Assembly: GCA_965217605.1 (NCBI GenBank)
Contig: CBDCJB010000017.1
Coordinates: 142,677-206,676 of the forward strand
Origin: Gammaproteobacteria bacterium
GTDB taxonomy: Bacteria; Pseudomonadota; Gammaproteobacteria; Ga0077536
Reading direction: 5' to 3'
Length of the DNA stretch: 64,000 nucleotides
In this document: in pieces, positions 11,435 through 34,597 of the stretch
Layout of the letters: every line of letters starts with the position of its first letter
Position numbering within the stretch: the stretch's first letter is position 1
Notes under the pieces: model-generated
Told to the model about the DNA's origin: nothing
The model's database searches: none
Seen by the model: only the letters and a program-made list of their open reading frames with translations
Position numbers and translations under genes: made by a program

Positions 11435-11498
11435 GCACCCGCCCGCAGGCGAACCATGCCATAAAGAAACGCCATCGGTTGCCGCTAAAGCTGAACCG

Positions 11499-11849
11499 AT
11501 GCCATTATCAAGCCTGATAAACGCGTTCTTCATCATCGCCACCATGGCACTGGTTTGGCCGCAAGCGCACGCGGTCGACGATGATGTACCAATATCAGAC
11601 TCGGCGAGCACGAAATTAGACGATGTATTCGTCCGCAATTCCGAATTCGTACGGGCACCGAGAGTTGATTTGTACGAGGCGACACGCGGAGCCGAAATCG
11701 CGCTTAAAAAACGGGAAACGCCGCGGCAGCGAACGCTCGAGGTCAAGTCCGCTGAACGCAATGCAGGCGGTCGCGTGACATCAGCGAGTAGCCTGGATGA
11801 AGCGCAGCGGAATCCGAGGGCAACATTTAACGTACGCCTCGCGCCTTAA
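11499..11849 (+). CDS. small secreted hypothetical protein
   Basis: 116 aa. N-terminal signal-peptide-like segment (LINAFFIIATMALVWPQAHA↓VDDD). No recognisable domain. Confidence 0.3.
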   Translation: MPLSSLINAFFIIATMALVWPQAHAVDDDVPISDSASTKLDDVFVRNSEFVRAPRVDLYEATRGAEIALKKRETPRQRTLEVKSAERNAGGRVTSASSLDEAQRNPRATFNVRLAP

Positions 11850-11878: not shown

Positions 11879-14356
11879 CTATTCGCCGGGCGGTGAAGAC
11901 AAACACGCCTGAATGCGTTCGGCCAGCTCGCCGACGTGCGGCTCTCGAAACAGCTCGCGATGATCCGTTCCGCTGAGCACCTCCACGCGGACATCGTGCG
12001 CGTATGTTCCCCATCCGAGAGCCCGGTCGCGCACCTGCCAGTACGGTTGCTTGCGCAAACGAAACACGGTCAGCTCGCCGTTGAACTTCGCGATTTCCCG
12101 CTTTGCGCTGGCGTATTGCACGTCTTGCTCCCAATGAGTCATCACCCCGTCAGCCGGTCGTCCGGAAATCACATCCGCAATCCAATGTCGCGCCGTCGCC
12201 AATCGGCGTGATCCTATTCGATGCAAGTTCGAGAGCAGCTTGCGCGCGGGAAGGCGTGCGAGCGATGCGGTACGACGGCCGTAATACAGCAACATGTTCC
12301 TTACTATGCGAATGTAAAACAGCCGTGAGACGGTATATTGCGCCGATGTGTCGACGATGCCGACCAACCCCACTGTTCGATCCTGCTCATAAAGTTGCTT
12401 GGCCATTTCGAACGCCAAGTGCGCGCCGGAGCACATGCCAACCAAATTCAAGGGCCCGCCGGTTTGTACGGTTTTGATCGCTGCGATGCACTTGCTCGCA
12501 AGGCTCGGGAACATGGACGCGTCCAATCTATTGAGATCCTGCTCGGCTACCGGTGGTTGCAATAGGTAAACCGGTTGCTCGGGATCGAGGTGGCGCGACA
12601 GCACAGCGTACCCGACTGCGTTAACCTCCGGCGCTGCGACGCAGAATAACGGGGGCTTTGCACCGTCTGGCTGAATGGCATTGACGATATCCTGATCAAC
12701 CGGCCAGCTTTGTTCCCAAAGCGCGCGCGCCATCTGCTCGACGGTCGGTATTCGGAACAGACCGAGCAACGGGATTGTCGCACCGGTGATCGATTCTAGC
12801 CGTGTGTGGAGTCCGGCAGCGTGGATCGAGTTTCCACCGATACGGAAGAAGTCGTCATCGGTGGCGAAGCGATCGATATCCAACACCCGCCGCCACTCGG
12901 CAATCAGCAGATCTTCCAATTCCGCGATTTCGATTCCCTGTTCGTGTCTCCGATCCCAGCTCGCGCTGGATCGGTCGTCGACTGTAGCGTTCTTGGAGTC
13001 GGCAGGTCTCGATGCCGTGTGAACGCCGGTTTTCGAGCGCAGGTCGGCTAAGGTGCCTAAGCGACAGTGCGGATCGGCGCCGACGATGCTCGTCACAATG
13101 CCAACGAAGCGTTCGAGCATTCGCTCGGTGTCGGTGAGGATGCGCGAGCGGGGCCCGGGGTAAGCGTGCAATGTTAGCTGAGGATCGGAATTGGAGATCG
13201 TCAAGGTCAGGGGATAGGTGGTAGACACCCAGCCTGTCGGCCCCCGAAGCTTCAAACCGTGCGGTTCGCGCGGTTCGTCCGCCGTAATGGACACCAACAG
13301 AGTATCGAATAATTGCTCGGTCGGACCGAGCTCGCTCCATGCATGAATCGCGGCGATTGAGACGTAATTGTATGGGGTCCGTTCTTGATGCGCGGCTTGA
13401 ATGTCGCGCAGCCACCGAACGAGTTCACTGTCGCCTTCGAGTCGCACCCTGACGGGCAGATTGTTGATGAAGGTGCCGATGATGGCGTCGACGCCCGCCA
13501 GATCGACGGGCCGCCCCGACACCGTGGCGCCGAATACTACATCTGCGCGACCCGAAAAGTGGTTGAGGAGCAGGGCCCAGGCGCCCTGGATGACGGTGCT
13601 CACGGTCAATCCATGCTGTCGCGCGAACGTGCGCAATGCCCGCGTCTCGTCGACCGACAATTCGATCGGGCAGCCAGAAGGTTCCGTATGTGTTTGCCCA
13701 CCATTGGGGGATTCCGCCGCAGCGGTAACCGGAGTCGGGATCGTGAACCCCTTCAATGCCGCGCACCAATAGCGTTCGGCCTTCGATCGGTCCTGGCCTT
13801 GAATCCAATTGATATAGTCTCGAAATCCTCGCACCTGCTCCATACTTACGGGATCCGGTTCCGTGGCAGAGGTATAGAAGGTGAATGCTTCCTGCCAGAA
13901 TATCCCGAGGCACCAGCGGTCCATTAACAAATGGTGGCAACTGCAGACGAGATAGTGGCTATCGGGCGCGAGCCGCATCAGGGTGAACCGCAACAGCGGC
14001 ACCTTCGTCAGCGTAAATCCGAGATGCCGATCAGCACGCCGAAACGCCTCCACACCGGCGAGTTGCTCCGCCGGCGACCGGTCGCTCCAATCCAAGAATT
14101 CGAACGGCACGTCTACTACACGGCGCACGACCTGCAGCGGCTGTTTGAGGTTTTCCCAAACGAATGCGGTCCTGGCAATCGGATGCCGGGCGATCACCTG
14201 TTGTATGGCTGAGCGCAGCCTCGAAGGGTCGAGCTGCCCGTGTATTTCATAGCAGAACTGGTTGAACAGCACGTCATCGCGCGGCGCCGAAACGGCGTGC
14301 AACAGCATGACCTCCTGCATCGGAGAGAGTGGGTACACGTCTTCGACGTTTTTCAT
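11879..14356 (-). CDS. NRPS termination module C-T-TE (no adenylation domain)
   Basis: 825 aa. C domain (LSPMQEVMLLH ... SCHHLLMDRWCLG). PCP (DDFFRIGGNSIHA). Thioesterase (GMCSGAHLAFEMA, GxSxG). No A-domain core motifs between C and T. Confidence 0.85.
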   Translation of the reverse strand: MKNVEDVYPLSPMQEVMLLHAVSAPRDDVLFNQFCYEIHGQLDPSRLRSAIQQVIARHPIARTAFVWENLKQPLQVVRRVVDVPFEFLDWSDRSPAEQLAGVEAFRRADRHLGFTLTKVPLLRFTLMRLAPDSHYLVCSCHHLLMDRWCLGIFWQEAFTFYTSATEPDPVSMEQVRGFRDYINWIQGQDRSKAERYWCAALKGFTIPTPVTAAAESPNGGQTHTEPSGCPIELSVDETRALRTFARQHGLTVSTVIQGAWALLLNHFSGRADVVFGATVSGRPVDLAGVDAIIGTFINNLPVRVRLEGDSELVRWLRDIQAAHQERTPYNYVSIAAIHAWSELGPTEQLFDTLLVSITADEPREPHGLKLRGPTGWVSTTYPLTLTISNSDPQLTLHAYPGPRSRILTDTERMLERFVGIVTSIVGADPHCRLGTLADLRSKTGVHTASRPADSKNATVDDRSSASWDRRHEQGIEIAELEDLLIAEWRRVLDIDRFATDDDFFRIGGNSIHAAGLHTRLESITGATIPLLGLFRIPTVEQMARALWEQSWPVDQDIVNAIQPDGAKPPLFCVAAPEVNAVGYAVLSRHLDPEQPVYLLQPPVAEQDLNRLDASMFPSLASKCIAAIKTVQTGGPLNLVGMCSGAHLAFEMAKQLYEQDRTVGLVGIVDTSAQYTVSRLFYIRIVRNMLLYYGRRTASLARLPARKLLSNLHRIGSRRLATARHWIADVISGRPADGVMTHWEQDVQYASAKREIAKFNGELTVFRLRKQPYWQVRDRALGWGTYAHDVRVEVLSGTDHRELFREPHVGELAERIQACLSSPPGE

Positions 14357-14420: not shown

Positions 14421-14768
14421 CTAACCATCGTCGAGGTCGCCGATTACGCGACTGAGACGGTCCAACTCCTCGTCGTCGAGCCCCGCGAGCGGAAAGTCCG
14501 ATGGCGTGAACCCGCCCGCATCCGGAGACTGACAATGATCGATTAGAACCTTAAGCGCCTGCATAAATTCACCAGCAACGCGCGCGATCGTGGCCTCGGT
14601 GTGAAGCCGCGACCCATAAGTCCAACCTACCCGAAGGGTCCCTTCGGCGATCAGTGCGGTTACCTTCAGTGCGCATCCGCGCAGCGCTCCGGGGTCGGAC
14701 GTGAAGTTGCCCGGCTCATAGAGCGGTCTGAAGATCGAAGAATCGGTAACGGACTGGTCCTTCCCCAA
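14421..14768 (-). CDS. C-terminal fragment of an NRPS E/C-like domain (frame-shifted continuation of 14716..16455)
   Basis: 115 aa ending ...GGFTPSDFPLAGLDDEELDRLSRVIGDLDDG. This is the same C-terminal signature as the end of the 1899-aa NRPS. It overlaps the previous ORF in a different frame. Confidence 0.5.
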   Translation of the reverse strand: MGKDQSVTDSSIFRPLYEPGNFTSDPGALRGCALKVTALIAEGTLRVGWTYGSRLHTEATIARVAGEFMQALKVLIDHCQSPDAGGFTPSDFPLAGLDDEELDRLSRVIGDLDDG

Positions 14769-16455
14769 GGCACTCGAAATTAATCTCCACGAGGTGTGCG
14801 GCCTGGAGTTCTTCGACTACAGTTTCATCGGCGTTCAAGTAGCGAAGCATCCCATAGCCCATTCCGGCCCCGGGAACCTGGCGAAGCTGTTCCTTAACGG
14901 CCTTCAGACATGCCCCCGGTTCCGGAGATCCTCCGGGATCCAGCGTCACTGGAAAGAACGCGGTAAAACACCCGACGGTGCGAGACAGGTCGACATTGTC
15001 GAACATCCCCTCACGACCGTGGCGCTCGATCCCGAGCGACACAGCGCGGGTCCCCATCCAGCCGCCCAAGGCCTGTACGAGCGCTGTCAGCACGACGTCG
15101 TCGATAACCGTCTGATACACCGCCGGCACGTCATGAAGCAACTGCCGCGTGTCCTCGGCACTGAGTTCGACCGTTAAGGTGCGCGCTGAACCCACGGTAT
15201 GTGCTGCCGCGCCCCCCTCGAGCTCCACCGGCACGCGGGCGCGTGAACCCGGCCGACGCCAGTAAGCGAGTTCCGGATAGGCGCGATCGGCATGAGCGTA
15301 TTCGTAAACACGCTCCGAGAACACCTTGAACGAGGTCGTTTTCGCCGGCAGCTCGACCGTCTCCCCGCGGCGCAGTTGCCGATAGGCGATCTCGAGGTCT
15401 TCGAGCAGGATCCGCCACGACACGCGGTCCACGGCCAGTTCGTGCACCATCAGCAGAATCCGGGGCGGGCGCGAGGCGCCGAACCGTATGATGGCCCCCG
15501 CCACGATCGCCCCCCGGCCGTAATCGAAACGCTGCCGCATCCGTGTCGCGATCGATTCTTGTTCTTGTGCCAGCGCTGCCTGGGAGATCGCAGAGAGATC
15601 GACTTCTGCGACGGAGACCTCCAATTCCGATGTGGCGACGTGTTGGCGCCATTGGGCGTCTTCGCGCTCGAAACAAAGACGCAGGGCGTCGTGATGTGCC
15701 ACCAGATAGCGCACCGCCTTTTCCAAGGTCGCCGTGCGCAGATCGATTGGCGCTTCCAGCAGAACGGACTGGCCCCAGTCTGCCGGGTTCTCGGCACCGA
15801 GCTCGAAGAAGCGATTTTGGATCGGTGTGAGCGGGACCGCCCCCGTCACCCCCCCTTGCTCCGATTGCGGTTCGCGATCCTCGTCCAACAACGCCGCCAG
15901 CTGGGCGATGGTGGGATTGTCGAAGAACTGCTCCGGCGTGATTCGGATCCCCGCTTGGATCGCCTTGGAGATGATCCTGATGCTCAAGAGCGAATCACCA
16001 CCCATTTCAAAGAAATCGTCGCGGATACCGACCGCATCGAATCCGAGAACCTCGGCCCAGATGTCGGCCAGGGTCTGCTCGACCGGCGTGCGCGGGGCGA
16101 CGAATGCATCTTCCGGCGCCTGGGTCTGCTCGCCGGGGTCGGGGAGGGCATTGCGGTCGATTTTTCCGTTCGGCATCAACGGCAATGCGTCCAGGAACAC
16201 GAATGCCGACGGCACCATGTAATCCGGCAGGCGTGCTTCCAGGAAGCCGCGTAATTCCGAAGCGTCAGTCGGCCGGTTCCCGTCGATCACCGCATAAGCC
16301 ACCAGCCGGCTATGACCCCCGACCGGCGTCGCCGGCCCGTCGGCGGATGCCCCGCTTGCTTCGTCATCCAAGCGCTGCTGGAGCCGACGCGAGAGGAACT
16401 CGAGCTTGTCGGGAGAGAGGTTTCGCACCCGGGTATAAAGATCACTCATTGCCAT
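14716..16455 (-). CDS. NRPS fragment: A9-A10 of adenylation domain, PCP, and N-terminal part of a degenerate epimerization-like domain
   Basis: RLVAYAV...LPDYMVPSAFVFLDALPLMPNGKIDR (A9/A10). DDFFEMGGDSLLSIRI (PCP). Then VHELAVDRVSWRILLEDLEIAY, an E2-like motif with the second His replaced. Confidence 0.7.
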   Translation of the reverse strand: MAMSDLYTRVRNLSPDKLEFLSRRLQQRLDDEASGASADGPATPVGGHSRLVAYAVIDGNRPTDASELRGFLEARLPDYMVPSAFVFLDALPLMPNGKIDRNALPDPGEQTQAPEDAFVAPRTPVEQTLADIWAEVLGFDAVGIRDDFFEMGGDSLLSIRIISKAIQAGIRITPEQFFDNPTIAQLAALLDEDREPQSEQGGVTGAVPLTPIQNRFFELGAENPADWGQSVLLEAPIDLRTATLEKAVRYLVAHHDALRLCFEREDAQWRQHVATSELEVSVAEVDLSAISQAALAQEQESIATRMRQRFDYGRGAIVAGAIIRFGASRPPRILLMVHELAVDRVSWRILLEDLEIAYRQLRRGETVELPAKTTSFKVFSERVYEYAHADRAYPELAYWRRPGSRARVPVELEGGAAAHTVGSARTLTVELSAEDTRQLLHDVPAVYQTVIDDVVLTALVQALGGWMGTRAVSLGIERHGREGMFDNVDLSRTVGCFTAFFPVTLDPGGSPEPGACLKAVKEQLRQVPGAGMGYGMLRYLNADETVVEELQAAHLVEINFECLGEGPVRYRFFDLQTAL

Positions 16456-16513
16456 TGCGAGGACCTCCTTGTACTCGATTCCGTGCCCGACTGTGTTCTC
16501 ATGCGGCGGCTTC

Positions 16514-17305
16514 CTACTTTACCGCGCGGACCACGACCATCGAGTTCGCCCACCACGCGTCCTTTACGTCATGCGGGAGGTTCAGAGAATCGATTACTCG
16601 CAGTTCGATCGAGTCGAAATACTTGAACAACAAGCGCTGATGGCCTCGGCTCAAGGAATCGATCTCATTCGTCAGGTAGGTGAATGCACCGCCTACACGT
16701 GTGTGTGCCGCCGCCGTCGGCATGAAATGCTCGGCGAACGTCGTGCTGTCTGCAACGTGTTCCAAACGTTCGGACTCGTTGAGCGGATAAGTGTGGAAGA
16801 ACACGCCATCGTAGACGTCGAGTTGCCCGATAACATCCTGCCAGCGACCGTGGATCAAGCGGATGTCCGCGTCGGGATAGCCGTTCCGCCATGCGTGAAA
16901 GCGCTCCACGATCGAATCGTTGCATTCGATGATGGTGTGCGAATTGACCCCCTGCGCCTGGATATATGCAGACGAGACGCCGAGCCCGAACCCGACTTCC
17001 AGGACGTCTCCGTGGGACGCCGTAACGGCCTCAGCCATGGCATTCATCAACGGTCGCTGCCAGCTCTCCATGATCTCCTCGTCCGCGAGCTTCGCTTGGG
17101 TACGATCTTCGAGCGGCTGTGCGTCGGCCCCCGGTACCAAGTCACGCGAGATCTCGTCGAGTTGTGCAAGATCGTCGACGAACTCGTTGAGCGCGCGATT
17201 GAGCAGCCAATTCTTTTGTGCATCGCGTGGCGGGTGAATGAACGCTGCATTCTTGATCTGGAGTGAGACGTCAAAGTCTCGCAGTCGCTTGAATCTCTTC
17301 GTCAT
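16514..17305 (-). CDS. class I SAM-dependent methyltransferase domain, apparently the insert of an interrupted NRPS A domain
   Basis: 263 aa. SAM motif I VLEVGFGLGVSS. Lies between an ORF carrying A1-A8 and an ORF carrying A9-A10, in a different frame from both. Confidence 0.65.
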   Translation of the reverse strand: MTKRFKRLRDFDVSLQIKNAAFIHPPRDAQKNWLLNRALNEFVDDLAQLDEISRDLVPGADAQPLEDRTQAKLADEEIMESWQRPLMNAMAEAVTASHGDVLEVGFGLGVSSAYIQAQGVNSHTIIECNDSIVERFHAWRNGYPDADIRLIHGRWQDVIGQLDVYDGVFFHTYPLNESERLEHVADSTTFAEHFMPTAAAHTRVGGAFTYLTNEIDSLSRGHQRLLFKYFDSIELRVIDSLNLPHDVKDAWWANSMVVVRAVK

Positions 17306-17370: not shown

Positions 17371-20265
17371 CTAGCCGCTGTGGGCCAATAGAACCTTCAC
17401 CGCTTCGTCGGAGAGTGACTCAGTTTCAGCGAGAATTTCATCGGCCACCTGCTCGGCGACATCAGCCAGTAGTTTGGCAACACGCTCGGTATCGGCACGC
17501 ATGTTGGCCCCACCGTCCTCGCGGGCGAGCACCACCGCCTCCTCGACCGCATCGTGGCTCGTCAACGCGGTTCTGATTTCTTCGAGCTCGACCCGATACC
17601 CTCGAATCTTGATCTGATCATCGATTCGCCCGAGGAACTCGATGTTGCCATCCGCGCGATAGCGGGCGAGATCGCCGGTCCTGTACACCCGTTCCTCGGG
17701 ACCATCGCCGATTCGCAATGCCAGAAATCGATCGTCGGTCAGCTCGGCTCGATTGAGATAACCGCGGGCAACACCTTCACCGCCAATGTGCAGCTCGCCG
17801 GGCACCCCCACCGGTACCAATTGACGGGTAGCATCCAGTAGATAGATCCGCGTATTGGCGGGCGGACGCCCGATCGGGACGGGTGTGGCTACGCTCTCCG
17901 GGGGCACGCGAAACACCGTACACCACACCGTGCCCTCGGTCGGACCATATTCGTTGAATAGCGTAGCGTGTGTCATCTTCGCGTGGTGACGGGCAAGCAC
18001 GTCCGGCGCACACGCCTCGCCCGCGACGATGACGGTTCGCATCGATTGCAAATCCGCGGCTTCAGCGTGATCGAGCAGCAGATGGTAGAGCGACGGAAGC
18101 AACAGTGTGTGTGACACCGCGTGCTCGGCGATCAAAGCCGCCAGCCGACCCATATCCTGCTCGATCCGGTGCGGCGGCAAAACCAAGGTTCCGCCCAGTG
18201 ACAAAGTCCAGAAGATACCGGCCACCGAGCTGTCGAACGCAATGGACGAGAGCAATAGAAATCGTTCGACGGGATCGGCGTAGTAACGCGTTCGCGCACA
18301 GGTGGAATGAACCAGGTTGCGGTGCGTGACTTGCACGCCTTTGGGTGCACCGGTCGAGCCGGAGGTATAGATCACATAGGCGAGATTCTCGGGCAGCCCC
18401 ACACTCGCCGGGGGATGTTCCGGAGACCGTGCGATCTCATCGAAGTCCGCATCGAGACGCAGCGTGGGGCAGTCACATGGAATCGCCGGTGATTGCGGTG
18501 CCGTTAGCAGCACGCGGGCACCGGCGTCTTCCACAATGAGTGCTTGGCGTTCCGGTGGGTAGTCCGGTTCTATCGGCACGTAGGCGCCACCGGACTTTAG
18601 AATACCCAGGATGGCGACGATCATCTCGATAGATCGCTGCATGCATACCGCGACACATGTCTCTGGTCCGACGCCCAGCGCTTGCAGATGATTCGCGAGC
18701 TGATTTGCCCGCCGGTTCAAGGCCAGGTAGGTCAGTTCCTGTCCCGGAAAAGCGACCGCGACCTTGTCCGGGAATGTCTCGGCCTGCCGTTCGATCAAAT
18801 GGTGAATGCACGCATCGCGCGGAAAATCAGCGCCTGTATCGTTCCACTGCACCGCTATCATCCGCCGCTCGTCTTCGCATAGAAGCGAGAGCTCCGATAG
18901 GCGACCGTCGGGATTGCCGGCGATGCCTTCGAGCACGGTTCCCAGATGACCGAGCATTCGGTCGATGGCCTGCGCTTCGAACCGCGCCGTATCGTATATC
19001 GCGATCAATCGAAGGCGCTCGTCCGGCGAAACCAGGATCGCCAGCGGGTAGTTGCTTCGTTCTAGGTACTGAGGATCGGCGATCTTCAGGCGATCGTCGG
19101 TGTCGAAGGAGAAGGTGAGTGGATGATTTTGAAACACCAGGATGCTTTCGAATAGTGCCCGTGCGTGCGGAATATCGCTCCAGCGCTGGATGTCCAGCAG
19201 CGCGCTGTGCTCGTGCTGGCGCATGGCCACCATCTGCGCTTGAATCGAATCGAGCCAGGCGCGCAAGGACTCGGTATTTGACATCCGGATCCGGACCGGC
19301 AGCGTGTTGATGAACAGGCCCACCATGTTCTCGACCCCATTTAGACTCGCGGGCCGGGTGGCCACCGTAGCGCCGAACACGAGGTCTTCGTCGCCGGTAT
19401 AGCGGTTGAGCAGGAGCGCCCACGCCCCCTGAACGATCGTGTTCAGCGTCAATCGATTGTCCATGGCCATGGATTGGAGCGCGCTCGTAGCAGCTTCGGC
19501 CAATTCGAACTGCCGCTGCGCGTACCCGCCTTCCGGGGCCGCGCGCGAAGTTGACGACGGCGCATCGCGGTGGCCGCTGACGCCCGGGTATCCGCGCTCG
19601 GCGGGCAGCCGGGTTGGCGCCGTGAACCCAGCGAGCTCCTTGCTCCAATACGCCCTGGCAGGAGAAGGGTCTTGGCGCTCGAGCCAGGAGACGAAGTCAC
19701 GAAACGGACGGGTAGGCGACGCCTCCGACATCTCGCTCGTTACCGACACCGGGTTACCTGCGTCGCGGAACGCCTGGTAGCGCGCAAAGACCTCTTTTAG
19801 AACCAGGCGCACCGACCATCCATCCAGTAGCAAATGATGAAAACTCCAAACGAATCTATGGGTCGTATCTTCGAATCGAATGAGCAGAAACCGCATGAGT
19901 GGGGCGCGGTCGAGCGTAAAGCCTTGCTCTCGATCGGCTTTGAGCACCGTGGTCAGCCGTTGGTTTCGAAGGTTCGCTGGCATACCCCGCCAATCCTGGT
20001 GCTCCCAGGGAACGCGAACGTGCTCCCGCACGATCTGAAGCGGCTTGTCGCGTTTTTCCCAGGTGAAAAGTGTACGTAGTGCGGCGTGCCGTTCTACGAC
20101 CTGATCCCACACGCGCTCGAAAACCGGAACGTCCAGATCGCCGCGCAGTGCACAGGCGTATTGCTCGAAATAGGTGCCCGACCCGGGTGAATAGAGGGTA
20201 TGAAACAACATCCCTTCTTGCACGGGGGTGAGACGGTAGACCGCTTCTATGTTGTCCTTAGCCAC
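17371..20265 (-). CDS. NRPS fragment: condensation domain + adenylation domain motifs A1-A8 (module 2, N-terminal part)
   Basis: 964 aa. C domain (RLTPVQEGMLFH, HHLLLDGWS). A3 YVIYTSGSTGAPKG. A5 NEYGPTE. A7 YRTGDLARY. A8 GRIDDQIKIRGYRVELEEI. Ends shortly after A8 with no A9/A10. Confidence 0.8.
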   Translation of the reverse strand: MAKDNIEAVYRLTPVQEGMLFHTLYSPGSGTYFEQYACALRGDLDVPVFERVWDQVVERHAALRTLFTWEKRDKPLQIVREHVRVPWEHQDWRGMPANLRNQRLTTVLKADREQGFTLDRAPLMRFLLIRFEDTTHRFVWSFHHLLLDGWSVRLVLKEVFARYQAFRDAGNPVSVTSEMSEASPTRPFRDFVSWLERQDPSPARAYWSKELAGFTAPTRLPAERGYPGVSGHRDAPSSTSRAAPEGGYAQRQFELAEAATSALQSMAMDNRLTLNTIVQGAWALLLNRYTGDEDLVFGATVATRPASLNGVENMVGLFINTLPVRIRMSNTESLRAWLDSIQAQMVAMRQHEHSALLDIQRWSDIPHARALFESILVFQNHPLTFSFDTDDRLKIADPQYLERSNYPLAILVSPDERLRLIAIYDTARFEAQAIDRMLGHLGTVLEGIAGNPDGRLSELSLLCEDERRMIAVQWNDTGADFPRDACIHHLIERQAETFPDKVAVAFPGQELTYLALNRRANQLANHLQALGVGPETCVAVCMQRSIEMIVAILGILKSGGAYVPIEPDYPPERQALIVEDAGARVLLTAPQSPAIPCDCPTLRLDADFDEIARSPEHPPASVGLPENLAYVIYTSGSTGAPKGVQVTHRNLVHSTCARTRYYADPVERFLLLSSIAFDSSVAGIFWTLSLGGTLVLPPHRIEQDMGRLAALIAEHAVSHTLLLPSLYHLLLDHAEAADLQSMRTVIVAGEACAPDVLARHHAKMTHATLFNEYGPTEGTVWCTVFRVPPESVATPVPIGRPPANTRIYLLDATRQLVPVGVPGELHIGGEGVARGYLNRAELTDDRFLALRIGDGPEERVYRTGDLARYRADGNIEFLGRIDDQIKIRGYRVELEEIRTALTSHDAVEEAVVLAREDGGANMRADTERVAKLLADVAEQVADEILAETESLSDEAVKVLLAHSG

Positions 20266-20298: not shown

Positions 20299-23200
20299 TC
20301 AGTCCGTCGATTCGCGAAACTCGGGGACAATGTCATCGAGGCCTTGCTGATCGAGATCCGCTTCCGGGAAATCCGATGGCGTATAGCCGCCAGCACCGGG
20401 ACGTGTGCAATGGGCGATCAGCTCGCGCAAGGATCCCAAAAACGTATCGGCGAGCCATACGATGGTTTCGCGAAGATGGGCGCCGTCACAATAGCGCCAC
20501 TCCACGCATAATTTCGCACCGCGAACCGTGCTGTCGATCGCCAGCAGGTGCCTGCGCGCGTTGCGCGAGTCGTGGGCTCTAGTCGGCCCGCCCGTCAGCC
20601 GGAACGCGAAGCCCGAACTCGAAACGGGTCCCGCTTCCTGGTGGTGAAAGAGCACCTGCGCGGACGAATCGCGCTGAGCGCTCATCGTAGGCGTCTCGCG
20701 CAGATAGCGATCAGCCCCGAATCCGATACCGTGATCGGGAATCGCACGCAGTTGTTCCTTCACCGCTTTGATCTCCGCCTCCGGATCGCCCGAGCTCGAC
20801 GAATGCGCCGGCGGGCGTTCTGAATCGACGCTGCTCAAACTCAAGGCCACCGGTGCGATTGCGGTGAACCGTCCGACCGTACGCAGCAGATGTTCTCCCG
20901 TGACGATCGCTTCGCGAACGTCGCGCTGCAAGTCGAGCGTTAATGACCTTGCACCGCTCCAGCGCTCGTTGGCTCGTAGGAGGCTCGTCAACAATAGATC
21001 TTCAGTTTGCGTGTTGTACGCAGCGGGCACATCGTTCAGCAACACCCGCGTCTCGTCAGCGTCCAATGATACTGATACCACACCCGTCGATGCCTCCGCG
21101 CAGTCGTCTGGCGGCTCGACGTCTTGCGGAATACGTGGCGATTCCGCTTCCAGTTGCCTCGACCAGTACGCCAGCTCGGCGTCCACTTGTCGTGACTCGG
21201 CGTGCTCGACAAGCGCTTCAGCCCACTGCTTGAACGCGAGCGTTTTCAACGGCAGCCGAATCGACCCGGCACGACGATACTGCGCGTAGGCGGACTCGAG
21301 GTCCTCGATGAGGACGTCCCAAGAGCGCCGGTCCACCGCCAGTCCATGCGCCACCAGCACGATTCGATCCGGCTTGCCGGGTCCGAGCGCGAACCCGGCG
21401 GCCCGTAGTAATACGCCCGCCTCGAAGCTCATCGCTGCGTTCAACTCGCGCTCGGTGGTCTCGATAGCCGTTTGCTGCGCTTGCGCGCTTCGACCCGACA
21501 GATCGATACGCAGCAGCGACATGTCGTCAACGCCTGAATGAACCTGCCGGCATTCCGAAGAATCGCGGGTAAATCGCAGCCGTAGCGCGTCGTGGTGCCG
21601 GATCAAGGCCTGCAATGCGGCCTGCAGCGCGTCGAAGTCCAACGCTTCGGTGGATTCGAGGGCGACCACCTCGTTCCAGTCGGCGGGCGCCGGATGCCCT
21701 GGTTCGAAGTACCAATGCTGGATCGGGGTCAGCGGTACGGGGCCCGTCACCGCGCCCTGCGCCGGGTGATGATAGGGATTCAATCCAACCACCTTCGCCA
21801 ATTCGCCCACCGTGGGGTGGTCGAATATCTGCTTGGGTGAGACTTGCAAGCCTCGTTGATTGGCGCGCGCCACGATCTGGATATTGAGTATGGAATCACC
21901 CCCGAGCTCTAAAAAGTCGTCGTCGACGCCGATCTGCTCCACGCCCAACACCTGGGACCATATTCGAGCCAGAACAGTTTCGATCTCGGTGCTCGGTGCG
22001 ACGTATTCGCGGTTCAACGCAGGACGGTCGGTTCCACTCGCCGCCAGCCGACTTCGATCCACTTTGCCGTTGGGCGTTAGCGGAATCTCGTCGAGCCTGA
22101 CGAATCGCGATGGGATCATGTGTTCCGGGAGCCGCTCGGAGAGATGGTCTCTCAGCTTGGACACCGTGATCGGCGCCTCAGAGACGTAATAGGCGGACAG
22201 TCGCTTTGCGGTCCGCTCGACAGCCCGCAAATTCGTGCTGAAACCGATGTCATGAAGGATCTTCTCGACCTTGGATGCGTCGATGTCGTCGTCGAGCTCG
22301 TCGAGCGCGGCCTGTCTGGTTTTGTGCCCCAGTCGAACGTCCCAACTATAAGGCAGCGCATAATTGTGAAATCCGCGCTCCTTCTTATGCACATAAATGC
22401 CCGCTTCGTTGATCAGGCAGTTCGTAGAGCGCCCCGTATCGGCGGGTCGAATCCACGGCGCCTTGGTCGACAAAAAGGTGAGGATCTGCGCCAAGGTCAC
22501 GCCGCAGTAACGATAAAAGTCGATGAACCGGATCTCGTCAAAGGTCTCGTCACGCTCGAAGATCTTCACGTCGAGGCAGCTCGATACGACATCATCCATC
22601 CGGTGGTACGCCTTGCGCGCCTCCAAGATGGTTTGCTCGATGCGATTGACGTCGAAGATATTGTTACGGTACATGTCGGCGAGCCGGGTCTCGAAGATCT
22701 CTCCCCTGGAGAGCCCGGTGACGATGAATCGAATGCCCTTCTCCCGTGCCAGATTGGTGCTCAACGTGTAGATGGTCTTAAAGCACCCATTGCAAACATT
22801 GCTGTGCGCCATCAGGCTGTTGACGAAGATGGCATTCATTGCAGGCGTCTCGGCGAAAACCAAGTCCAAGCCCAGTGCGTCGACCACCCGCCGGATATTG
22901 GCTTTCGCCCCCTCGGAGATAAAGCCATTGTCCAAGCTGAACACGAGCGGGGTGAGACCCATCTCGACGAGTTGATACAGGACGTAAGTGCTGTCCTTCC
23001 CCCCGCTCAACAGCATCAAGCAGTCGTACGCGCCGCGGTGAGTGTCCCGCTCCTCGAAGAGGATCCGGCGCAACTCGTCCATGGAGCCGAAGTACGCCAT
23101 GGCGCGGTCCCGGTAGCGATCGTATGACTCGCACAGGTTGCAGATGCCATCGGGGCTCAAGGTCGCCTCGGGATGATTCGAGGACAGGCCGCAGCGTACG

Positions 23201-25998
23201 CAGTACTCGGCTGTTTCGGGAACGCTCCGTTCGTACCGGCAAACGTCGGCGACGCACGCACTGATGCGATCGTGGGCCAGCAACGCAACTTCGATCTCAC
23301 CGAGCTCGATGCGCGCGCCGCGGATCTTGACCTGATGGTCGGTACGACCCACGAGCTCGATGTGCCCGCGCGAGTTCCAGCGCGCCAGGTCTCCCGTTCT
23401 GTACATCGTGCACGTTGAGTCCGCGAGGTCGGGAAGAAATCGCGCTGCCGTCTGCGCTGGTTGATTTAAATAACCGGTCGCCACGCCTTCCCCGGCGATA
23501 TAGATCTCCCCGACAACGCCGGCCGGCACCGGCTCCAAGTGGGGATCGAGCAGATAGATCCAGGCATTCCCCGCCGCCCGTCCGATCGGCACCGATGCGT
23601 CGCAGTCCACCTCGGCGTCGAATTGATGAATCATGCAGGCGACGGTCGCCTCGGTCGGGCCGTATTCGTTGTAGATTTTGAGCCCGGCGCGCGATTCGGC
23701 GACGGCCGCGGCCAGCTCGGTCTTGAAGTCCTCACCGCCGGCGATGAGTTGCACGAGCTTAGCGGTATCGGCGATTCGATCCTTGATTAGCGCAAGGTGC
23801 GAGGGCGTCAGCTTGATGACGTCGACAGCGTCATCCTCGATGACGCGCAAGATGGAGACGTCGTGCGCGGCGTCGTCTTCGCCATAGACGACGACTGTTC
23901 CGCCAGTCACCAGCGGCACGAACATTGAAGTCACGGTAAGGTCGAAAGAAAACGATGAGTACAAGGGAAAATCACCGCGCTCACCGTTCAAGTACTGCTC
24001 TCGCGCCCACCAGATGTAGTTGAGCAGGCTACGTTGCGTGATCATTACGCCTTTCGGCGTCCCAGTGGAGCCCGAGGTATAGATCAGGTAGGCCAAATCG
24101 TCTCGGCCTGCGGCGCTGATCGGAGCCACCTGTTTTCCCTTTGCGATCGCGCCCCACTCAGTGTCGATGCAGATGACTGACGGGACACCCGCCTTTGCAC
24201 CGCGTTCCATACGGTCTGGCAACCGTTCGACCAACAACGAGTGGGTCAATACGATCGGCGCCCGCGTATCGTCGAGCATGAAGTCGAGCCGCGACTTGGG
24301 ATAGGCCGGATCCAGTGGCACATAGGCGGCGCCCGCTTTGTGCACTGCGAGAACGCTGACGATCATTTCGGGGGATCGATGCAGACAGATGGCCACGCAC
24401 GCGCCGGGCCCGGCCCCCCGCTCGCGTAGGTAGTGCGCGAGTCGGTTTGCGCGCTCGTCTAGTTCTCGATAGGTCAGCGCAGGTCCAACTTCCGGCGGCG
24501 ACGCAACACTGGACTTGGCCAGTACCGCGATCGCATTGGGCGTACGTTCGGCCTGGGCGGCGATCAGCTCCACCACCGAACCCTGGCTCGGATAGGCCAT
24601 TCGTGGGCGGTCGTCTACACCTAGAAAATGGGCCTTCTCGTCTTCGGAGAGGAGTCTAATGAGAGCGATAGCTTGCTCGCGGTTATCAATGAACGCATCG
24701 ACGATGCGCAGGAACTGCGCAATTGCGAGACGACGTTGCTGCTCATCGAAGACGTCACAATTAAAGTCGAAATGCAGCCGCACGGTCCCGGTTTCATCGA
24801 AGTCGTGCACTTGAACGCGAAGGCTGTGCCCCCGATCCCCGGCGCCGGGGTGAATCCATTCCGAGCGCATGGGCAGCCCATTGAAATCCGCAAAGGTCGC
24901 GTTGATGAAGTTCAACACGACGTTATAAGCGCGGTTTGACTCCGGGTTACTCGCACCGGGCTGCGCGAAGCGCAGCGACGCGTTTGTCTCGTAGGTGACC
25001 TTGCGAATCAGCGTGGCAAAGCTTTCGCCTTCCGATAGCTCGATCTGTAGTGGGAACAGCTCGATGAACAAGCCGATAGTTTCCTTGAATGCAGCGGTCG
25101 ATCGGTTATGCGCCGGCGTTCCAATCGCCAGCTTGTCCAATCCGCTGACTCGATGCAGATAGGCAAACAACAGTGTCGCGAAAATGTTGAACAACGACAT
25201 ATCCAGGGTGAGTGAGCGAATACCCTTCTCCATCGCAATCGCCTTGAGGCGCTCGCTGCGCTCTCGCCCGAGATCGCACAATACCCGTTCGGTACGCGTC
25301 GACTCGTGCGATGTCGGTACGCCGTAGAAGCGGATGCGTTCCGGCACATCGAGCGCTTTGGATGCCCAGTATCTGGCAGCTTTATCGAATTGCTGAGAGC
25401 GCCTGTGACGCTGCTCGAACTCGGCGTAGTCCTGAAATTGAGGAAGGTCTTCGGCCTCGTTGAGCCGGCCGGCGCACGCGAGTTGGTAGTACTCGGCCAT
25501 CCGGCGGTAGAGTACCGCCTTGGCCACACCGTCAGTGATGAGGTGATGCTGGTTGAGATACCAGACGAAGCGGTCCTCGGCCAGCTTGATCAGGGCGGTA
25601 TCGACTAAGCGCTCGCTGAGGTGGAATTGAAACACGCGTCGCTCATCCAACCACCGTAGCTGCAGGGCGTCCGGATCGGGGTTCGAGGACCAATCCAGCA
25701 TCTCGATATCGTGCGGGAGCGAGTCGAGGACCCGCCGTTGAGGTACGCCGTCGACTTCCCCGATGACGGTTCGCATCGCGTCACTTTTGGATGCCAAGGT
25801 ACGAAATGCGCGTTCAAAGGCCTCGGGCTGGATACTCCCTGCGATCGTGAACGTCAGGATCATGTTGTACAGGGGCACATCCGGATTGAACTTCTGCCCC
25901 AGCCAGATCTGAAATTGACTGTTGGTGAGATTGGATCTGTGGAATATCTCCTCGGCGGATTGCGGGTGGGAGATCGGGTTGGCCATCGTCGAATTCAC
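20299..25998 (-). CDS. NRPS module 1: starter-type C domain, interrupted A domain (PP-loop amidotransferase-like insert), PCP, degenerate E-like domain
   Basis: 1899 aa. C (HHLITDG). A1-A8 (LTYRELDERANRLA, YTSGSTGTPKG, NEYGPTE, GRTDHQVKIRGARIELGEIE). ~340-aa insert with CVRCG...CNLC plus SGGKDS. A9/A10 (LPEHMIPS...LTPNGKVDR). PCP (LGGDSIL). Terminal domain with AHGLAVDRRSWDVLIEDL. Start may be GTG at 25998 or ATG at 25986. Confidence 0.85.
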   Translation of the reverse strand: MNSTMANPISHPQSAEEIFHRSNLTNSQFQIWLGQKFNPDVPLYNMILTFTIAGSIQPEAFERAFRTLASKSDAMRTVIGEVDGVPQRRVLDSLPHDIEMLDWSSNPDPDALQLRWLDERRVFQFHLSERLVDTALIKLAEDRFVWYLNQHHLITDGVAKAVLYRRMAEYYQLACAGRLNEAEDLPQFQDYAEFEQRHRRSQQFDKAARYWASKALDVPERIRFYGVPTSHESTRTERVLCDLGRERSERLKAIAMEKGIRSLTLDMSLFNIFATLLFAYLHRVSGLDKLAIGTPAHNRSTAAFKETIGLFIELFPLQIELSEGESFATLIRKVTYETNASLRFAQPGASNPESNRAYNVVLNFINATFADFNGLPMRSEWIHPGAGDRGHSLRVQVHDFDETGTVRLHFDFNCDVFDEQQRRLAIAQFLRIVDAFIDNREQAIALIRLLSEDEKAHFLGVDDRPRMAYPSQGSVVELIAAQAERTPNAIAVLAKSSVASPPEVGPALTYRELDERANRLAHYLRERGAGPGACVAICLHRSPEMIVSVLAVHKAGAAYVPLDPAYPKSRLDFMLDDTRAPIVLTHSLLVERLPDRMERGAKAGVPSVICIDTEWGAIAKGKQVAPISAAGRDDLAYLIYTSGSTGTPKGVMITQRSLLNYIWWAREQYLNGERGDFPLYSSFSFDLTVTSMFVPLVTGGTVVVYGEDDAAHDVSILRVIEDDAVDVIKLTPSHLALIKDRIADTAKLVQLIAGGEDFKTELAAAVAESRAGLKIYNEYGPTEATVACMIHQFDAEVDCDASVPIGRAAGNAWIYLLDPHLEPVPAGVVGEIYIAGEGVATGYLNQPAQTAARFLPDLADSTCTMYRTGDLARWNSRGHIELVGRTDHQVKIRGARIELGEIEVALLAHDRISACVADVCRYERSVPETAEYCVRCGLSSNHPEATLSPDGICNLCESYDRYRDRAMAYFGSMDELRRILFEERDTHRGAYDCLMLLSGGKDSTYVLYQLVEMGLTPLVFSLDNGFISEGAKANIRRVVDALGLDLVFAETPAMNAIFVNSLMAHSNVCNGCFKTIYTLSTNLAREKGIRFIVTGLSRGEIFETRLADMYRNNIFDVNRIEQTILEARKAYHRMDDVVSSCLDVKIFERDETFDEIRFIDFYRYCGVTLAQILTFLSTKAPWIRPADTGRSTNCLINEAGIYVHKKERGFHNYALPYSWDVRLGHKTRQAALDELDDDIDASKVEKILHDIGFSTNLRAVERTAKRLSAYYVSEAPITVSKLRDHLSERLPEHMIPSRFVRLDEIPLTPNGKVDRSRLAASGTDRPALNREYVAPSTEIETVLARIWSQVLGVEQIGVDDDFLELGGDSILNIQIVARANQRGLQVSPKQIFDHPTVGELAKVVGLNPYHHPAQGAVTGPVPLTPIQHWYFEPGHPAPADWNEVVALESTEALDFDALQAALQALIRHHDALRLRFTRDSSECRQVHSGVDDMSLLRIDLSGRSAQAQQTAIETTERELNAAMSFEAGVLLRAAGFALGPGKPDRIVLVAHGLAVDRRSWDVLIEDLESAYAQYRRAGSIRLPLKTLAFKQWAEALVEHAESRQVDAELAYWSRQLEAESPRIPQDVEPPDDCAEASTGVVSVSLDADETRVLLNDVPAAYNTQTEDLLLTSLLRANERWSGARSLTLDLQRDVREAIVTGEHLLRTVGRFTAIAPVALSLSSVDSERPPAHSSSSGDPEAEIKAVKEQLRAIPDHGIGFGADRYLRETPTMSAQRDSSAQVLFHHQEAGPVSSSGFAFRLTGGPTRAHDSRNARRHLLAIDSTVRGAKLCVEWRYCDGAHLRETIVWLADTFLGSLRELIAHCTRPGAGGYTPSDFPEADLDQQGLDDIVPEFRESTD

Positions 25999-26664: not shown

Positions 26665-28149
26665 ATGACCGAACCCGGACCGCTGGCGGGACTCGGCCGA
26701 CGCATGGCGAGGGGGGCAGCGTGGACCGTCGCGTTGCGCGTAGCGGTTCGTGGGCTCGGACTGTTAAGCACCATCATCCTCGCCCGCCTGCTGGTTCCAG
26801 CGGATTTCGGTTTGATTGCCCTTGCGACCTTACTCGCGGCCTCGCTCGAGTTACTTAGCGCATTCAACTTTCGCATTTGGCTGCTCCGCCACCCCAACCC
26901 CGAGCGCGAGCACTACGACACCGTGTGGACGCTGTCCATCATCAGGGGTGCCCTGACCTGCGTGGGACTATGGCTTCTCGCCCATCCTGCCGGCGCGTTT
27001 TTTAACGAGCCGCGACTTGCCGATGTGGTCATGATCCTGGGCGTCGCCACGGCGGTGGGTGCATTTCAGAACGTCGGCATTATCGATTTCCAGAAATATC
27101 TCGATTTCGACAAGGATTTTCGGCTCTTGCTCGGCGTCCGGTTCGGCTCGTTCATCGTCACCGTTAGTCTCGCATTCTGGCTACGCACGTACTGGGCGCT
27201 GGTTGCCGGACTGGCCGCCATTCAGTTATTGACCCTGATACTCAGCTACACCATGCACTCGTTTCGCCCGCGGTTATCGTTGCGGCGCTGGCGTGAGGCA
27301 TTCGACTTCTCAAAATGGCTTTTGGTCGGCAACCTTTTGCTGTTCCTGTACACGCGAGCCGATACCTTCATTCTCGGCAGGCTGGTCAACAGTCAGCTCT
27401 TGGGCCTGTATACGATGGCACACGAGATCGCCGAACTCGCGACATCCGAGCTCGTCGAGCCGCTTCGTCGCGTGATGCTCCCCGGTTACGCCCAGATGAT
27501 GGTCGATACGCCCGCTCTCAAGCGGGGTTTTGTGGATGGATTTGCCCTGGTTTTGCTAATCGGGTTCCCGTGCGCGGCCGGCATCGGCCTGACTGCCGAT
27601 CCGGTGGTGCGGGTACTACTCGGCGAGAAGTGGCTCGAGTCGATCCCATTGATACAGATTCTCGTCGTCTACGGACTTGCGTCCGTAGCGTTGGCCAACC
27701 AGGGGCCGATTTTGCTCGCACTCGGGTACACGCGTCTACTCACCGCGCTCACCGCGATTGGGCTGGCCATCATCGTGCCCGCGTTCACCTGGGCAAGTAC
27801 CCGTTTCGGGCTGTCGGGCGGCGCCTGGGCGGTGGGCGTCACGCACATGGCGATGCAATCGCTCACGTTGGCAATGACGTTGCGGGTTTTGCATATTCCG
27901 GCCCGGGACGTGTTGCGAGATACTTGGCGAATCGCGGCTGCGACCTCGGTCATGACGCTTTCGGTACTTGCAGTGCAAGCCGGGCTCGAGGACGTGGAAG
28001 ACGGGCCGGTCGCGATGCTGGCCATGAGCGTCGTAACCGGCGCGATCGCCTACGCCGCGACGGTCCTCGCGCTGTGGCACTTCTGCGGTCGCCCCAAGGG
28101 ACCCGAGCACTTGGTGGTGGCGTTCGTCCGCGAGCGCTTGGATAAATGA
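26665..28149 (+). CDS. MOP-superfamily polysaccharide-biosynthesis/PST-family flippase-like transporter
   Basis: 494 aa, ~12-14 predicted TM helices. N-terminal AAWTVALRVAVRGLGLLSTIILARLL is typical of Wzx/PST flippases. Divergent from the NRPS. Confidence 0.65.
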   Translation: MTEPGPLAGLGRRMARGAAWTVALRVAVRGLGLLSTIILARLLVPADFGLIALATLLAASLELLSAFNFRIWLLRHPNPEREHYDTVWTLSIIRGALTCVGLWLLAHPAGAFFNEPRLADVVMILGVATAVGAFQNVGIIDFQKYLDFDKDFRLLLGVRFGSFIVTVSLAFWLRTYWALVAGLAAIQLLTLILSYTMHSFRPRLSLRRWREAFDFSKWLLVGNLLLFLYTRADTFILGRLVNSQLLGLYTMAHEIAELATSELVEPLRRVMLPGYAQMMVDTPALKRGFVDGFALVLLIGFPCAAGIGLTADPVVRVLLGEKWLESIPLIQILVVYGLASVALANQGPILLALGYTRLLTALTAIGLAIIVPAFTWASTRFGLSGGAWAVGVTHMAMQSLTLAMTLRVLHIPARDVLRDTWRIAAATSVMTLSVLAVQAGLEDVEDGPVAMLAMSVVTGAIAYAATVLALWHFCGRPKGPEHLVVAFVRERLDK

Positions 28150-28218: not shown

Positions 28219-29907
28219 ATGGCTGCGAACGACCCTAGCGCATCGACTCGCGCCGATGACACGCCGCTCTATCGGCTAGTGAGGCACCGCATTCCCCGCG
28301 GCGCGACCGATTTTGACAAACGGTATCCGGTCCTTTTTCTGTGGATACGAATATGCGCGTTGCTCGCCATTTACGTACTCGTCGACTACTTCTTTCGCCG
28401 CGCCGGGCACCTTGCTGGGGCCGCTTATGAACAGCCTTTGCTGATCCCCGAGGTCTTGAAGCGGATAGGGCTCCTGCCCGGCGGCATTCTGGCAGTGGGG
28501 TTGGTATTGCTCCTTCGATTCGGCTCGCTTACGAGCCCTTGGACGTCGCTGGAATTCGGCTTGCAAATTCGCGTGCTCATCGTCTTCCTCGCGGCGTTGA
28601 TGGCCTGGCCGCTCGCTACCTACGGGTATAACTATTACTTCGATCAAGGCCACTACTTCGATCGCGCACTGGTCGTCGTTCTCGTGCCATTGATTTACTA
28701 CCGCCCGATTTTCATTTATCCGTTTCTACTCGTCGCCTTCCCTTTGATGTGGCAGTTTCATCAACCCGCCATCAGTGCCGGAGCGCACCTTGCACATAAG
28801 CTGCAGGTCTTGCACGTCCTAACCCTGTTCGCGGCCGTCTTTTTGATCCATGCCGTTACCGGAAACCGCCGAATGCAAGGGTTCTTCTTTCTTACCTGTT
28901 GCCTGGTGGCAGCCGCGTATTGGGTGCCGGCACTTACGAAGATCGAGCGCAATTGGGTCACCTATGGTCATTTGTACCGGATGCCGCTGGCTGCTTACGC
29001 GCATGGTTGGCTCGCCTTTCTCGAGCCGTCGACCATCGTTCGCTTCGCCAAGGCCGTAGCCTGGTTTGATTGGCCGATGCGGATTTTTACGCTGGTGGTC
29101 GAGGGCGGCTGCCTGCTCTTTCTGTGGCGCCGATCGGTATCCATCGCGCTCCTCATTGGCGTAATCGTCTTTCATCTCGGAGTCTTTGCGCTTTACGGAT
29201 ATTTGATGTGGACCTGGATCCTGCTCGATGTCGCCTTGTTGATCGTCCTCGTTCGAGATTGGTCAGCGTGCAAGATTGACATCTACAGCCGCCACCATCT
29301 AATCATCTCCGCGCTCTTCATCGGGTTCGCCAGCTACTGGTGCAGCCCCTCGAGCCTGGGGTGGTACGACACGCGGATCACCTATAACTATCGCTATGAG
29401 GTGGTGGGCGAAAGTGGCAAGCGGTATACGCTGCATGGAAGGTTTTTAGAGCCGTATGGCGATCCCTTGACGATGAGCAACTTCGGGTACCTCCCGGAAG
29501 ACCACAGCTTGCTCGTCTATCCCTATGGAATCACGGGAAATCGCTTGATCGCTGAGCGTCTGACAGAGACCAAGACCGCCGAGGAAGTCTTCGCACTAGA
29601 AGCGGAACTGGGCGATCGCCGACACGATACCGAACGCGCCGCGCAGTTCTACGGGTTCATCACCCGCTATCTCACCAACTGGAACGCGCGGGGCGAGAAG
29701 GCGGTGGCGCTTTATGCCCTACATCCTCCGGTGCAGTTTTGGAGCTCCGGGCGCGGCGAGGTCTATCGAGGCGCAGAGCCGATTAGAGAGGTGTCGATCA
29801 AAGAGGTCACCACTTTATTCGACGAGGACCGCCTGATCGAGATCCGCTCGCTCGAACTCGCAAAGCTCCCCATTCCGACGCATGGCTCGCCCCTGAAGAA
29901 GCAGTAG
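28219..29907 (+). CDS. large integral membrane protein of unknown function with C-terminal soluble domain
   Basis: 562 aa. Multiple hydrophobic segments in the first ~380 aa, followed by a hydrophilic ~170 aa tail. No recognisable catalytic motif. Confidence 0.45.
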   Translation: MAANDPSASTRADDTPLYRLVRHRIPRGATDFDKRYPVLFLWIRICALLAIYVLVDYFFRRAGHLAGAAYEQPLLIPEVLKRIGLLPGGILAVGLVLLLRFGSLTSPWTSLEFGLQIRVLIVFLAALMAWPLATYGYNYYFDQGHYFDRALVVVLVPLIYYRPIFIYPFLLVAFPLMWQFHQPAISAGAHLAHKLQVLHVLTLFAAVFLIHAVTGNRRMQGFFFLTCCLVAAAYWVPALTKIERNWVTYGHLYRMPLAAYAHGWLAFLEPSTIVRFAKAVAWFDWPMRIFTLVVEGGCLLFLWRRSVSIALLIGVIVFHLGVFALYGYLMWTWILLDVALLIVLVRDWSACKIDIYSRHHLIISALFIGFASYWCSPSSLGWYDTRITYNYRYEVVGESGKRYTLHGRFLEPYGDPLTMSNFGYLPEDHSLLVYPYGITGNRLIAERLTETKTAEEVFALEAELGDRRHDTERAAQFYGFITRYLTNWNARGEKAVALYALHPPVQFWSSGRGEVYRGAEPIREVSIKEVTTLFDEDRLIEIRSLELAKLPIPTHGSPLKKQ

Positions 29908-34332: not shown

Positions 34333-34597
34333 GACTTGTGGATCTTTCGGTCACGGTCCAAGGCTCTGATAGGTCGATTCAGTCCTTGCACAACGCGCTC
34401 TCCGCTCCCGTAAAGACCGCTATCCCTATATCTATGAGTTATGTGTAAAAGCTTAGCGTCCAATGGTGGTGCCCGTCGCCACTCATATGTGTGATCTCAA
34501 GTTAAGCCGGGTGTGTACTGAGGTGATCCCACCGACCGGACACAATTGTTCACGGCAACGTTAAATCGCGGTAAATGTCGGGTCGGGATCTCGGTCA

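Follow-up and report, generated by a model that had tools for sequence, protein, structure and literature searches.

An NRPS encoded in the 64,000-nucleotide stretch of DNA analysed here (the window) carries a PP-loop domain of about 340–350 aa inserted into its adenylation (A) domain, and on sequence comparison this insert is very probably an AMDH (aminomutase / amide dehydratase) domain, as characterised in CysH of cystobactamid biosynthesis and present in AlbIV of albicidin biosynthesis. The AMDH domain was named and tested by Gross et al. 2021 (Nat Commun 12:1696; PMC7966384), where L-Asn bound to the thiolation (T) domain of CysH was either dehydrated to beta-cyano-L-alanine or isomerised to isoasparagine, in cis. 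The first-pass annotation had read the insert as a complete PP-loop domain and as a new kind of on-line tailoring, an interpretation that is partly supported: the inserted PP-loop domain is real, but the claim of a new tailoring type falls, the domain type having been characterised in CysH (PMC7966384), and amidation, amidine formation and thioamidation are minority rivals. The insert types that it listed as known at this position (methyltransferase, ketoreductase, oxidase and monooxygenase) agree with two surveys of interrupted A domains, which deal with M, Ox, KR and MOx inserts alone and do not mention AMDH; it is because of these surveys that the insert seemed new, although AMDH had already been described in 2021. 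Full-text searches of the literature for interrupted adenylation with amidotransferase or PP-loop, or for NRPS thioamide with AANH, gave nothing beyond the CtaC paper, and a comparable ATP-dependent step in cis had been proposed for albicidin before 2021, as cited in PMC7966384. New here are a spread across at least 353 species, the assignment of a cysteine triad with an alignment to LarE, and a metallophore-like gene neighbourhood in other genomes.

Domain architecture of the host NRPS

The NRPS ORF, on the minus strand with a GTG start codon, encodes a C-A-T-E elongation-type module that hosts the AMDH domain in line (Table 1). Interruption of the A domain between motifs A8 and A9 had been claimed from the sequence, and Pfam, TIGR01733 and the motif positions agree on it: the NCBIfam match to TIGR01733 (amino acid adenylation domain) stops at aa 916, after motif A8 (GRTDHQVKIRGARIELGEIE, aa 884–903, window 23290–23349), and the boundaries originally given for the insert, 22185–23203, correspond to aa ~932–1271, the insert core. 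The stretch that aligns to the CysH AMDH domain covers aa 932–1256 (window 22231–23205). Because the NRPS frame is unbroken through the insert, the product is one polypeptide and not that of two genes; the A9/A10 assignment after the insert stands, and an A domain that simply ends ahead of a separate gene is incompatible with the single frame. A domain of ~38 kDa within the A domain, followed by a T domain, is thus found in one frame throughout. The T domain is presumed to display the Asn substrate, and the C-terminal condensation-superfamily domain appears to be E-like (epimerase-like), with AHGLAVDRRSW read in the translation where the HHxxxD motif would be expected. The downstream NRPS gene of this assembly carries an apparent frameshift at window ~14715–14740, and the pathway may not be intact.

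Table 1. Features of the NRPS gene, its inserted domain and neighbouring genes, in window coordinates.
Feature	Window position	Strand	Basis or remark
NRPS gene, 1899 aa: C, A(AMDH), T, E-like (putative)	20299..25998	minus	ORF list and translation, Pfam, NCBIfam
Condensation domain, N-terminal, aa 24-457	24628..25929	minus	PF00668, E 1.7e-107 (figure for whole protein)
Adenylation domain, part 1 to motif A8, aa 480-903	23290..24561	minus	PF00501 480-844; TIGR01733 509-916
Predicted AMDH-type PP-loop domain between A8 and A9, aa 926-1275	22174..23223	minus	
Cys4 zinc-ribbon-like motif CVRCG-x15-CNLC, aa 933-956	23131..23202	minus	C8/C11/C28/C31 invariant in 22-member family alignment
PP-loop ATP-binding motif SGGKDS, aa 998-1003	22990..23007	minus	Invariant in family alignment; equals AMDH core region 1, SGGKD (PMC7966384)
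CNGC, CxxC of the CxxC...C triad, aa 1069-1072	22783..22794	minus	Invariant in family alignment
Cys1194 in RSTNC, third triad Cys	22417..22419	minus	Invariant in family alignment; absent in NASATs
A9/A10 motifs LPEHMIPS...LTPNGKVDR, aa 1290-1315	22054..22131	minus	PF13193 (AMP-binding_C) 1262-1312 and motif positions
Thiolation (carrier) domain, aa 1343-1403	21790..21972	minus	PF00550 (PP-binding), E 1.4e-15
C-terminal condensation-superfamily domain	20302..21711	minus	Second PF00668 stretch
Flippase	26665-28149		Window neighbour, the sole one of the conserved set
562-aa protein, no family match	28219-29907		Window neighbour

Relationship to the AMDH domain of CysH

A BLASTP comparison of the insert with the CysH AMDH domain, the reference sequence being taken from the Source Data of Gross et al. 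2021 (PMC7966384), returned 52% identity and 71% positives over 327 aa (E 6e-136), and the AMDH ATP-binding motif SGGKD is present in the window insert. The specificity string of the window A domain, DLTKIGEVC, is identical to those of CysH and AlbIV in one alignment, for which the code extraction correctly recovered GrsA as a control, and from this identity the host A domain is predicted to be specific for L-Asn. About 70 related loci yield the near-invariant string DLTK[IV]GE[VI]C, which we take to be Asn-like. CysH prefers Asn experimentally (PMC7966384). Carrier taxa are also held in common: the 25 closest AMDH homologs reported for CysH include Pricia antarctica, Pseudozobellia, Microvirga and Lewinella, with Gemmatimonadetes represented too (PMC7966384), and the genome scan carried out here also gave loci of Pricia antarctica, Pseudozobellia, Microvirga and Lewinellaceae. 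The identity to CysH, the common specificity string and the common carrier taxa together argue that the window domain is a member of the AMDH family.

The activity of the family is known from CysH, where the AMDH domain has a mass of 38 kDa and carries SGGKD; Asn on CysH loses 18 Da after prolonged incubation in vitro, which Asn on CysH-deltaAMDH does not, and deletion of AMDH abolishes all isoasparagine and cyanoalanine cystobactamids, with earlier beta-hydroxylation by CysJ favouring the shift to isoasparagine (PMC7966384). The CysH preparation was dark brown on purification, and the domain was described with neither a known mechanism nor a structural template (PMC7966384). The window domain resembles that of CysH (Cystobacter velatus, cystobactamid) in its length of ~340 aa, its SGGKD(S) motif, its Asn-type A domain host and the T domain that follows, and the Cys4 ribbon, CNGC and STNC motifs are visible in the CysH sequence too; CysH and AlbIV, however, are stand-alone A-AMDH-T proteins with the product shuttled to the main line, whereas the window domain lies in-line within C-A-T-E. 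The partners of CysH also set the two apart, in that no TauD/SyrP-type hydroxylase, O-methyltransferase or gene of the CysJ (hydroxylase), CysQ (O-methyltransferase) or CysB type, nor AlbVIII, turned up in those window ORFs that were scanned with Pfam; CysJ, CysQ and CysB belong to the cystobactamid pathway and are not defining for the AMDH domain. Identity to 82 related loci is 45–56% for CysH and 53–64% for the window domain, which makes CysH slightly more distant from these loci, and function could have drifted between them.

Motifs and predicted fold of the inserted domain

The Cys4 cluster reported at the start of the insert, CVRCG...CNLC, is present, with a spacer of 15 residues and not the 17 first counted; the equivalent tetracysteine motif of LpNASAT binds Zn (PMC10607449). 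The canonical SGGKDS followed by DNG was also correctly recognised, DNG lying within SLDNGF at aa 1021–1026. The window copy keeps each of the 80 alignment columns found invariant in 22 family members, among them those of SGGKDS, DNG, RPxDTGRSTNC and the two Cys motifs, and because every family-invariant residue is present, the window AMDH copy looks functional. That the insert is instead a catalytically dead relic, kept because its removal would disturb A-domain folding, is exceedingly unlikely; the frameshift in the downstream NRPS gene and a window without the starter genes seen at other loci would suit such a relic, but conservation of 80/80 invariant columns and a mean column identity of 64% within the family alignment point to strong purifying selection.

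Family searches of the insert gave a weak QueC match alone in Pfam (E 0.002), and the check for a PP-loop family suggested in the first-pass annotation was answered by the NCBIfam profile TIGR03573 WbuX (N-acetyl sugar amidotransferase), which matched over profile positions 2–326 of 344 at E 1.8e-31, far beyond chance. An AlphaFold2 model built with a 22-sequence alignment as input is confident (pLDDT 87.8, pTM 0.86), and the N-terminal tetracysteine Zn motif and SGGxDS are found in a NASAT fold; given the TIGR03573 match and this model, the initial structural guess was a good one. QueC and nitrile synthetases of the ToyM/ArtA type show weak similarity, but are free-standing and have other Cys motifs.

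The proposed likeness to WbuX holds for the TIGR03573 match and the NASAT fold, but not for the score, the cysteine triad described below or the expected hisH/HisF2 neighbours, and it was on these three points that an amidotransferase, the reading followed first, was abandoned. A WbuX/NASAT-type enzyme would make an amidine, or convert Asp to Asn, by adenylating an amide or carboxylate and then adding ammonia, and such an activity is very unlikely here: the insert scores 109.8 bits, far below the TIGR03573 cut-off of 203.2; its identity to NASATs is 20–22%; NASATs carry another motif at the position of the CxxC; and the close characterised homolog, the CysH AMDH domain, does something else (PMC7966384). 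Genes for ammonia supply, hisH and ‘AglZ/HisF2 acetamidino modification protein’, adjoin 4/5 of the NASATs fetched, whereas neither HisH/HisF2 (WbuY/WbuZ-type) nor sugar-pathway genes occur among the annotated conserved neighbours of the NRPS loci. NASATs (WbuX/WbpG/PseA, TIGR03573, LpNASAT 8wex), at ~20% identity to the insert, also differ in acting on nucleotide-sugar substrates, not carrier-bound amino acids.

The cysteine triad and sulfur insertion as an unlikely alternative

The CxxC...C triad, formed by C1069, C1072 and C1194 of the window protein, is present in 80/82 embedded loci and 114/119 free-standing relatives, and absent from 5/5 NASATs in an alignment that sets three embedded sequences, the window insert and two other NRPS copies, beside four free-standing relatives and the five annotated NASATs. 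SGGxDS together with such a triad is found as in CtaC, TtuA and [4Fe-4S] LarE, and the best PDB sequence match of the family profile is MmLarE-[4Fe-4S] 8cnz (E 4.4e-8; identity of the entry taken from its PDB title), in which C107/C110 align to the window CxxC (CNGC). LarE homologs in which SGGXDS is joined by a CXXC-C motif carry a tri-Cys [4Fe-4S] cluster (PMC9283937), and in CtaC, of closthioamide biosynthesis, the corresponding residues are D77/S78, C154, C157 and C284, these cysteines being important in thioamidation of PCP-bound substrates (PMC6772006).

A CtaC/LarE-like thioamide-forming domain was for a while the leading idea, until demoted by the CysH AMDH sequence and biochemistry. 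It would be an Fe-S-dependent sulfur-inserting PP-loop enzyme of the CtaC/[4Fe-4S] LarE kind, acting on the T-bound intermediate to make a thioamide of its Asn side-chain amide or of the peptide bond upstream, and is now judged improbable. Its appeal lies in a triad located after the PP-loop, as in CtaC, with identical order and similar spacing (PMC6772006), in the 8cnz match with its aligned CxxC and the [4Fe-4S] cluster of similar LarE homologs (PMC9283937), in the near-universal presence of the triad at the embedded loci set against its absence from the five true amidotransferases, in the dark brown colour of purified CysH (PMC7966384), and in HupE/UreJ and TonB-receptor genes in related clusters. 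Against these stand the formation of a nitrile in vitro by the CysH domain, which is 52% identical and for which no addition of sulfide is reported; described products (cystobactamids and albicidin) that bear cyanoAla or isoAsn linkers; primer-derived peptides of CtaC (LQDCSQLCFFCGRL and SSGCKLGKPY, with OCR errors) that are unlike the motifs here; the absence of CtaC among the 120 closest relatives of a free-standing homolog; and the lack of a sulfur-mobilising gene among the annotated conserved neighbour families.

As an Fe-S AANH thioamide synthetase, CtaC shares with the AMDH domain a PP-loop, a predicted structural Zn site, the CxxC...C motif and a restriction to carrier-tethered substrates (PMC6772006), but it is free-standing, inserts sulfur and has different local motifs, a comparison made here through primer-derived peptides alone. 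[4Fe-4S] LarE (8cnz) and the TtuA/NcsA tRNA thiolases have only a core of ~170–190 aa in common with the insert, and their substrates differ. Bulbicupramide, considered as an NRPS thiooxazole precedent, was dropped, the literature showing it to be an MNIO RiPP.

Distribution and gene neighbourhood

Relatives of the insert number 563 in the protein database, at 48–66% identity, many being fragments from frameshifted long-read assemblies, and the species count given above comes from one scan of species-representative genomes; carriers include isolates of Adonisia, Microvirga, Mesorhizobium, Anaerobacterium, Pricia and Pseudozobellia. The domain lies in-frame between the end of the A-core and Asub-T in 78/82 loci, with C-A(AMDH)-T and C-A(AMDH)-T-E the commonest layouts. 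Conserved neighbours in other genomes comprise acyl-CoA dehydrogenase (33 loci), HupE_UreJ_2 (31 loci) and ornithine cyclodeaminase (16 loci), alongside a stand-alone A domain, a small PCP, glycosyltransferases, TonB-dependent receptors, a PPTase and a MOP-type flippase, a neighbourhood that suggests a prolyl-to-pyrrolyl starter and a metallophore-like product. Beyond the flippase and the 562-aa protein (Table 1), the window contains aromatic-degradation genes.

Proposed mechanism

By analogy with CysH, the host A domain would activate L-asparagine and load the following T domain, and the embedded PP-loop domain would act in cis on the T-tethered Asn. ATP may activate the side-chain amide oxygen, as suggested by PP-loop chemistry in general and by the proposal of Cociancich et al. 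for albicidin, which, as cited in PMC7966384, comprises ATP-dependent phosphorylation of the amide oxygen and subsequent elimination; departure of the activated oxygen would then yield the nitrile, beta-cyano-L-alanine, or alternatively the Asn residue would be isomerised to isoasparagine, with the E-like domain downstream probably epimerising the residue afterwards. Since no CysJ-type hydroxylase was found in the scanned window ORFs, cyanoalanine and/or isoasparagine, or unchanged Asn, would be predicted, on the basis of CysH results without CysJ (cysJ deletion; PMC7966384).

A dehydration alone would not account for the triad, a feature typical of PP-loop enzymes that insert sulfur. The triad may form a metal site, probably Fe-S, in keeping with the brown colour of CysH, and such a site could assist elimination as a Lewis acid. 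A broader proposal is advanced tentatively, as possible but doubtful: AMDH domains would be NASAT-fold PP-loop enzymes with three cysteines binding a [4Fe-4S] cluster or another metal, and their in-line clade, to which the window domain belongs (at least 353 species in many phyla), would build undescribed small metallophores bearing cyanoalanine, isoasparagine and possibly thioasparagine. If true, the tri-Cys metal site would account for the colour of CysH, and as a Lewis acid it could promote the dehydration as well as the 2,3-amino shift; were the thioamide reading true, the thioamide would provide a soft ligand for the metallophore.

Implications for the AMDH family

Interest now centres on how AMDH works, on how large and widespread the in-line clade is, and on the free-standing relatives. 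The mechanism is unsolved and no structure was available to the authors in 2021, which makes the fold and triad assignments useful, and linking AMDH to the NASAT fold and the triad gives concrete residues, C1069, C1072 and C1194, to consider. None of the in-line AMDH modules is tied to a product; their neighbourhood suggests a widespread orphan metallophore family, for which Pricia antarctica DSM 23421 and Microvirga are culturable carriers.

Second NRPS module

The adenylation domain of module 2 is, like that of module 1, broken between motifs A8 and A9, but is here spread over three separate ORFs (table), the second of which matches PDB entry 3orh (E 2e-20) and has no match in Pfam or NCBIfam. 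The same three-ORF arrangement is found in four of the loci in other genomes that carry relatives of AMDH, the PP-loop domain inserted in module 1 (L009, L039, L006 and L020), with most junctions overlapping by 4 nt; in three further loci (L054, L078 and L014), the methyltransferase is joined to the upstream ORF as a single fusion. The specificity string of the module 2 adenylation domain is DSALIAEV-. Within the epimerase-like domain of this module, a frameshift is located at ∼14715-14740 on the minus strand, where the alignment of the L009 and L039 homologues to the window switches from frame -2 to frame -3 and an orphan ORF is left behind; either the gene is a pseudogene or the assembly is in error here. 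Homologues of the terminal NRPS protein, a termination module without an adenylation domain, are present in 28 related loci.

Features of the window and of two related loci
Feature	Sequence	Position	Strand	Description
Module 2, ORF 1	window	17371-20265	-	C-A, ending ∼50 aa beyond A8
Module 2, ORF 2	window	16514-17305	-	263 aa, guanidinoacetate-N-methyltransferase-like; between ORFs 1 and 3
Module 2, ORF 3	window	14716-16455	-	A9/A10-T-E
Orphan ORF	window	14421-14768	-	115 aa
Last NRPS protein	window	11879-14356	-	C-T-TE
MOP flippase	window	26665-28149	+	Polysacc_synt_3
562-aa protein	window	28219-29907	+	follows the flippase gene
WP_000872602.1	L083, Bacillus thuringiensis HD1002 plasmid	11998-12969		free-standing AMDH relative, 323 aa, annotated QueC
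AMDH-like domain	L085, Streptomyces sp. NBC_01216 plasmid	14947-17127		40% identity; N-terminus of ‘condensation domain-containing protein’

Free-standing and apparently split AMDH relatives

The free-standing WP_000872602.1, with >1200 database relatives of 323-347 aa, is 30% identical to AMDH and shares its Zn ribbon and Cys triad; its neighbours encode an ACP, two adenylate-forming enzymes, two PCPs, KS proteins, AsnB and a PPTase. The Streptomyces gene is preceded by a separate 618-aa NRPS gene, with asnB directly upstream, and appears to represent the interrupted adenylation domain in split form.

Genomic context

The NRPS island is enclosed by catabolic genes without evident NRPS link (positions 1-11500 and 34500-48000), encoding a hydantoinase/oxoprolinase, Rieske ring-hydroxylating oxygenases, catechol and extradiol dioxygenases, HpaB and an N,N-dimethylformamidase-like protein. 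A flippase gene also adjoins the NRPS genes in L001 and on a Roseovarius pelagicus plasmid, and homologues of the 562-aa protein, which has no Pfam or NCBIfam match, adjoin AMDH-NRPS genes in nine further loci.

Many related clusters carry accessory genes that are absent from the window. In L054, L022, L081, L086 and others, genes lying upstream of the AMDH module, at ∼10 kb, encode HupE_UreJ_2, ornithine cyclodeaminase, an acyl-CoA dehydrogenase, a stand-alone adenylation domain and a ∼90-aa PCP, a set resembling that for a prolyl-to-pyrrolyl-2-carboxyl starter, with a TonB-dependent receptor additionally present in Bacteroidota loci. Taken together, these genes suggest an orphan metallophore family.
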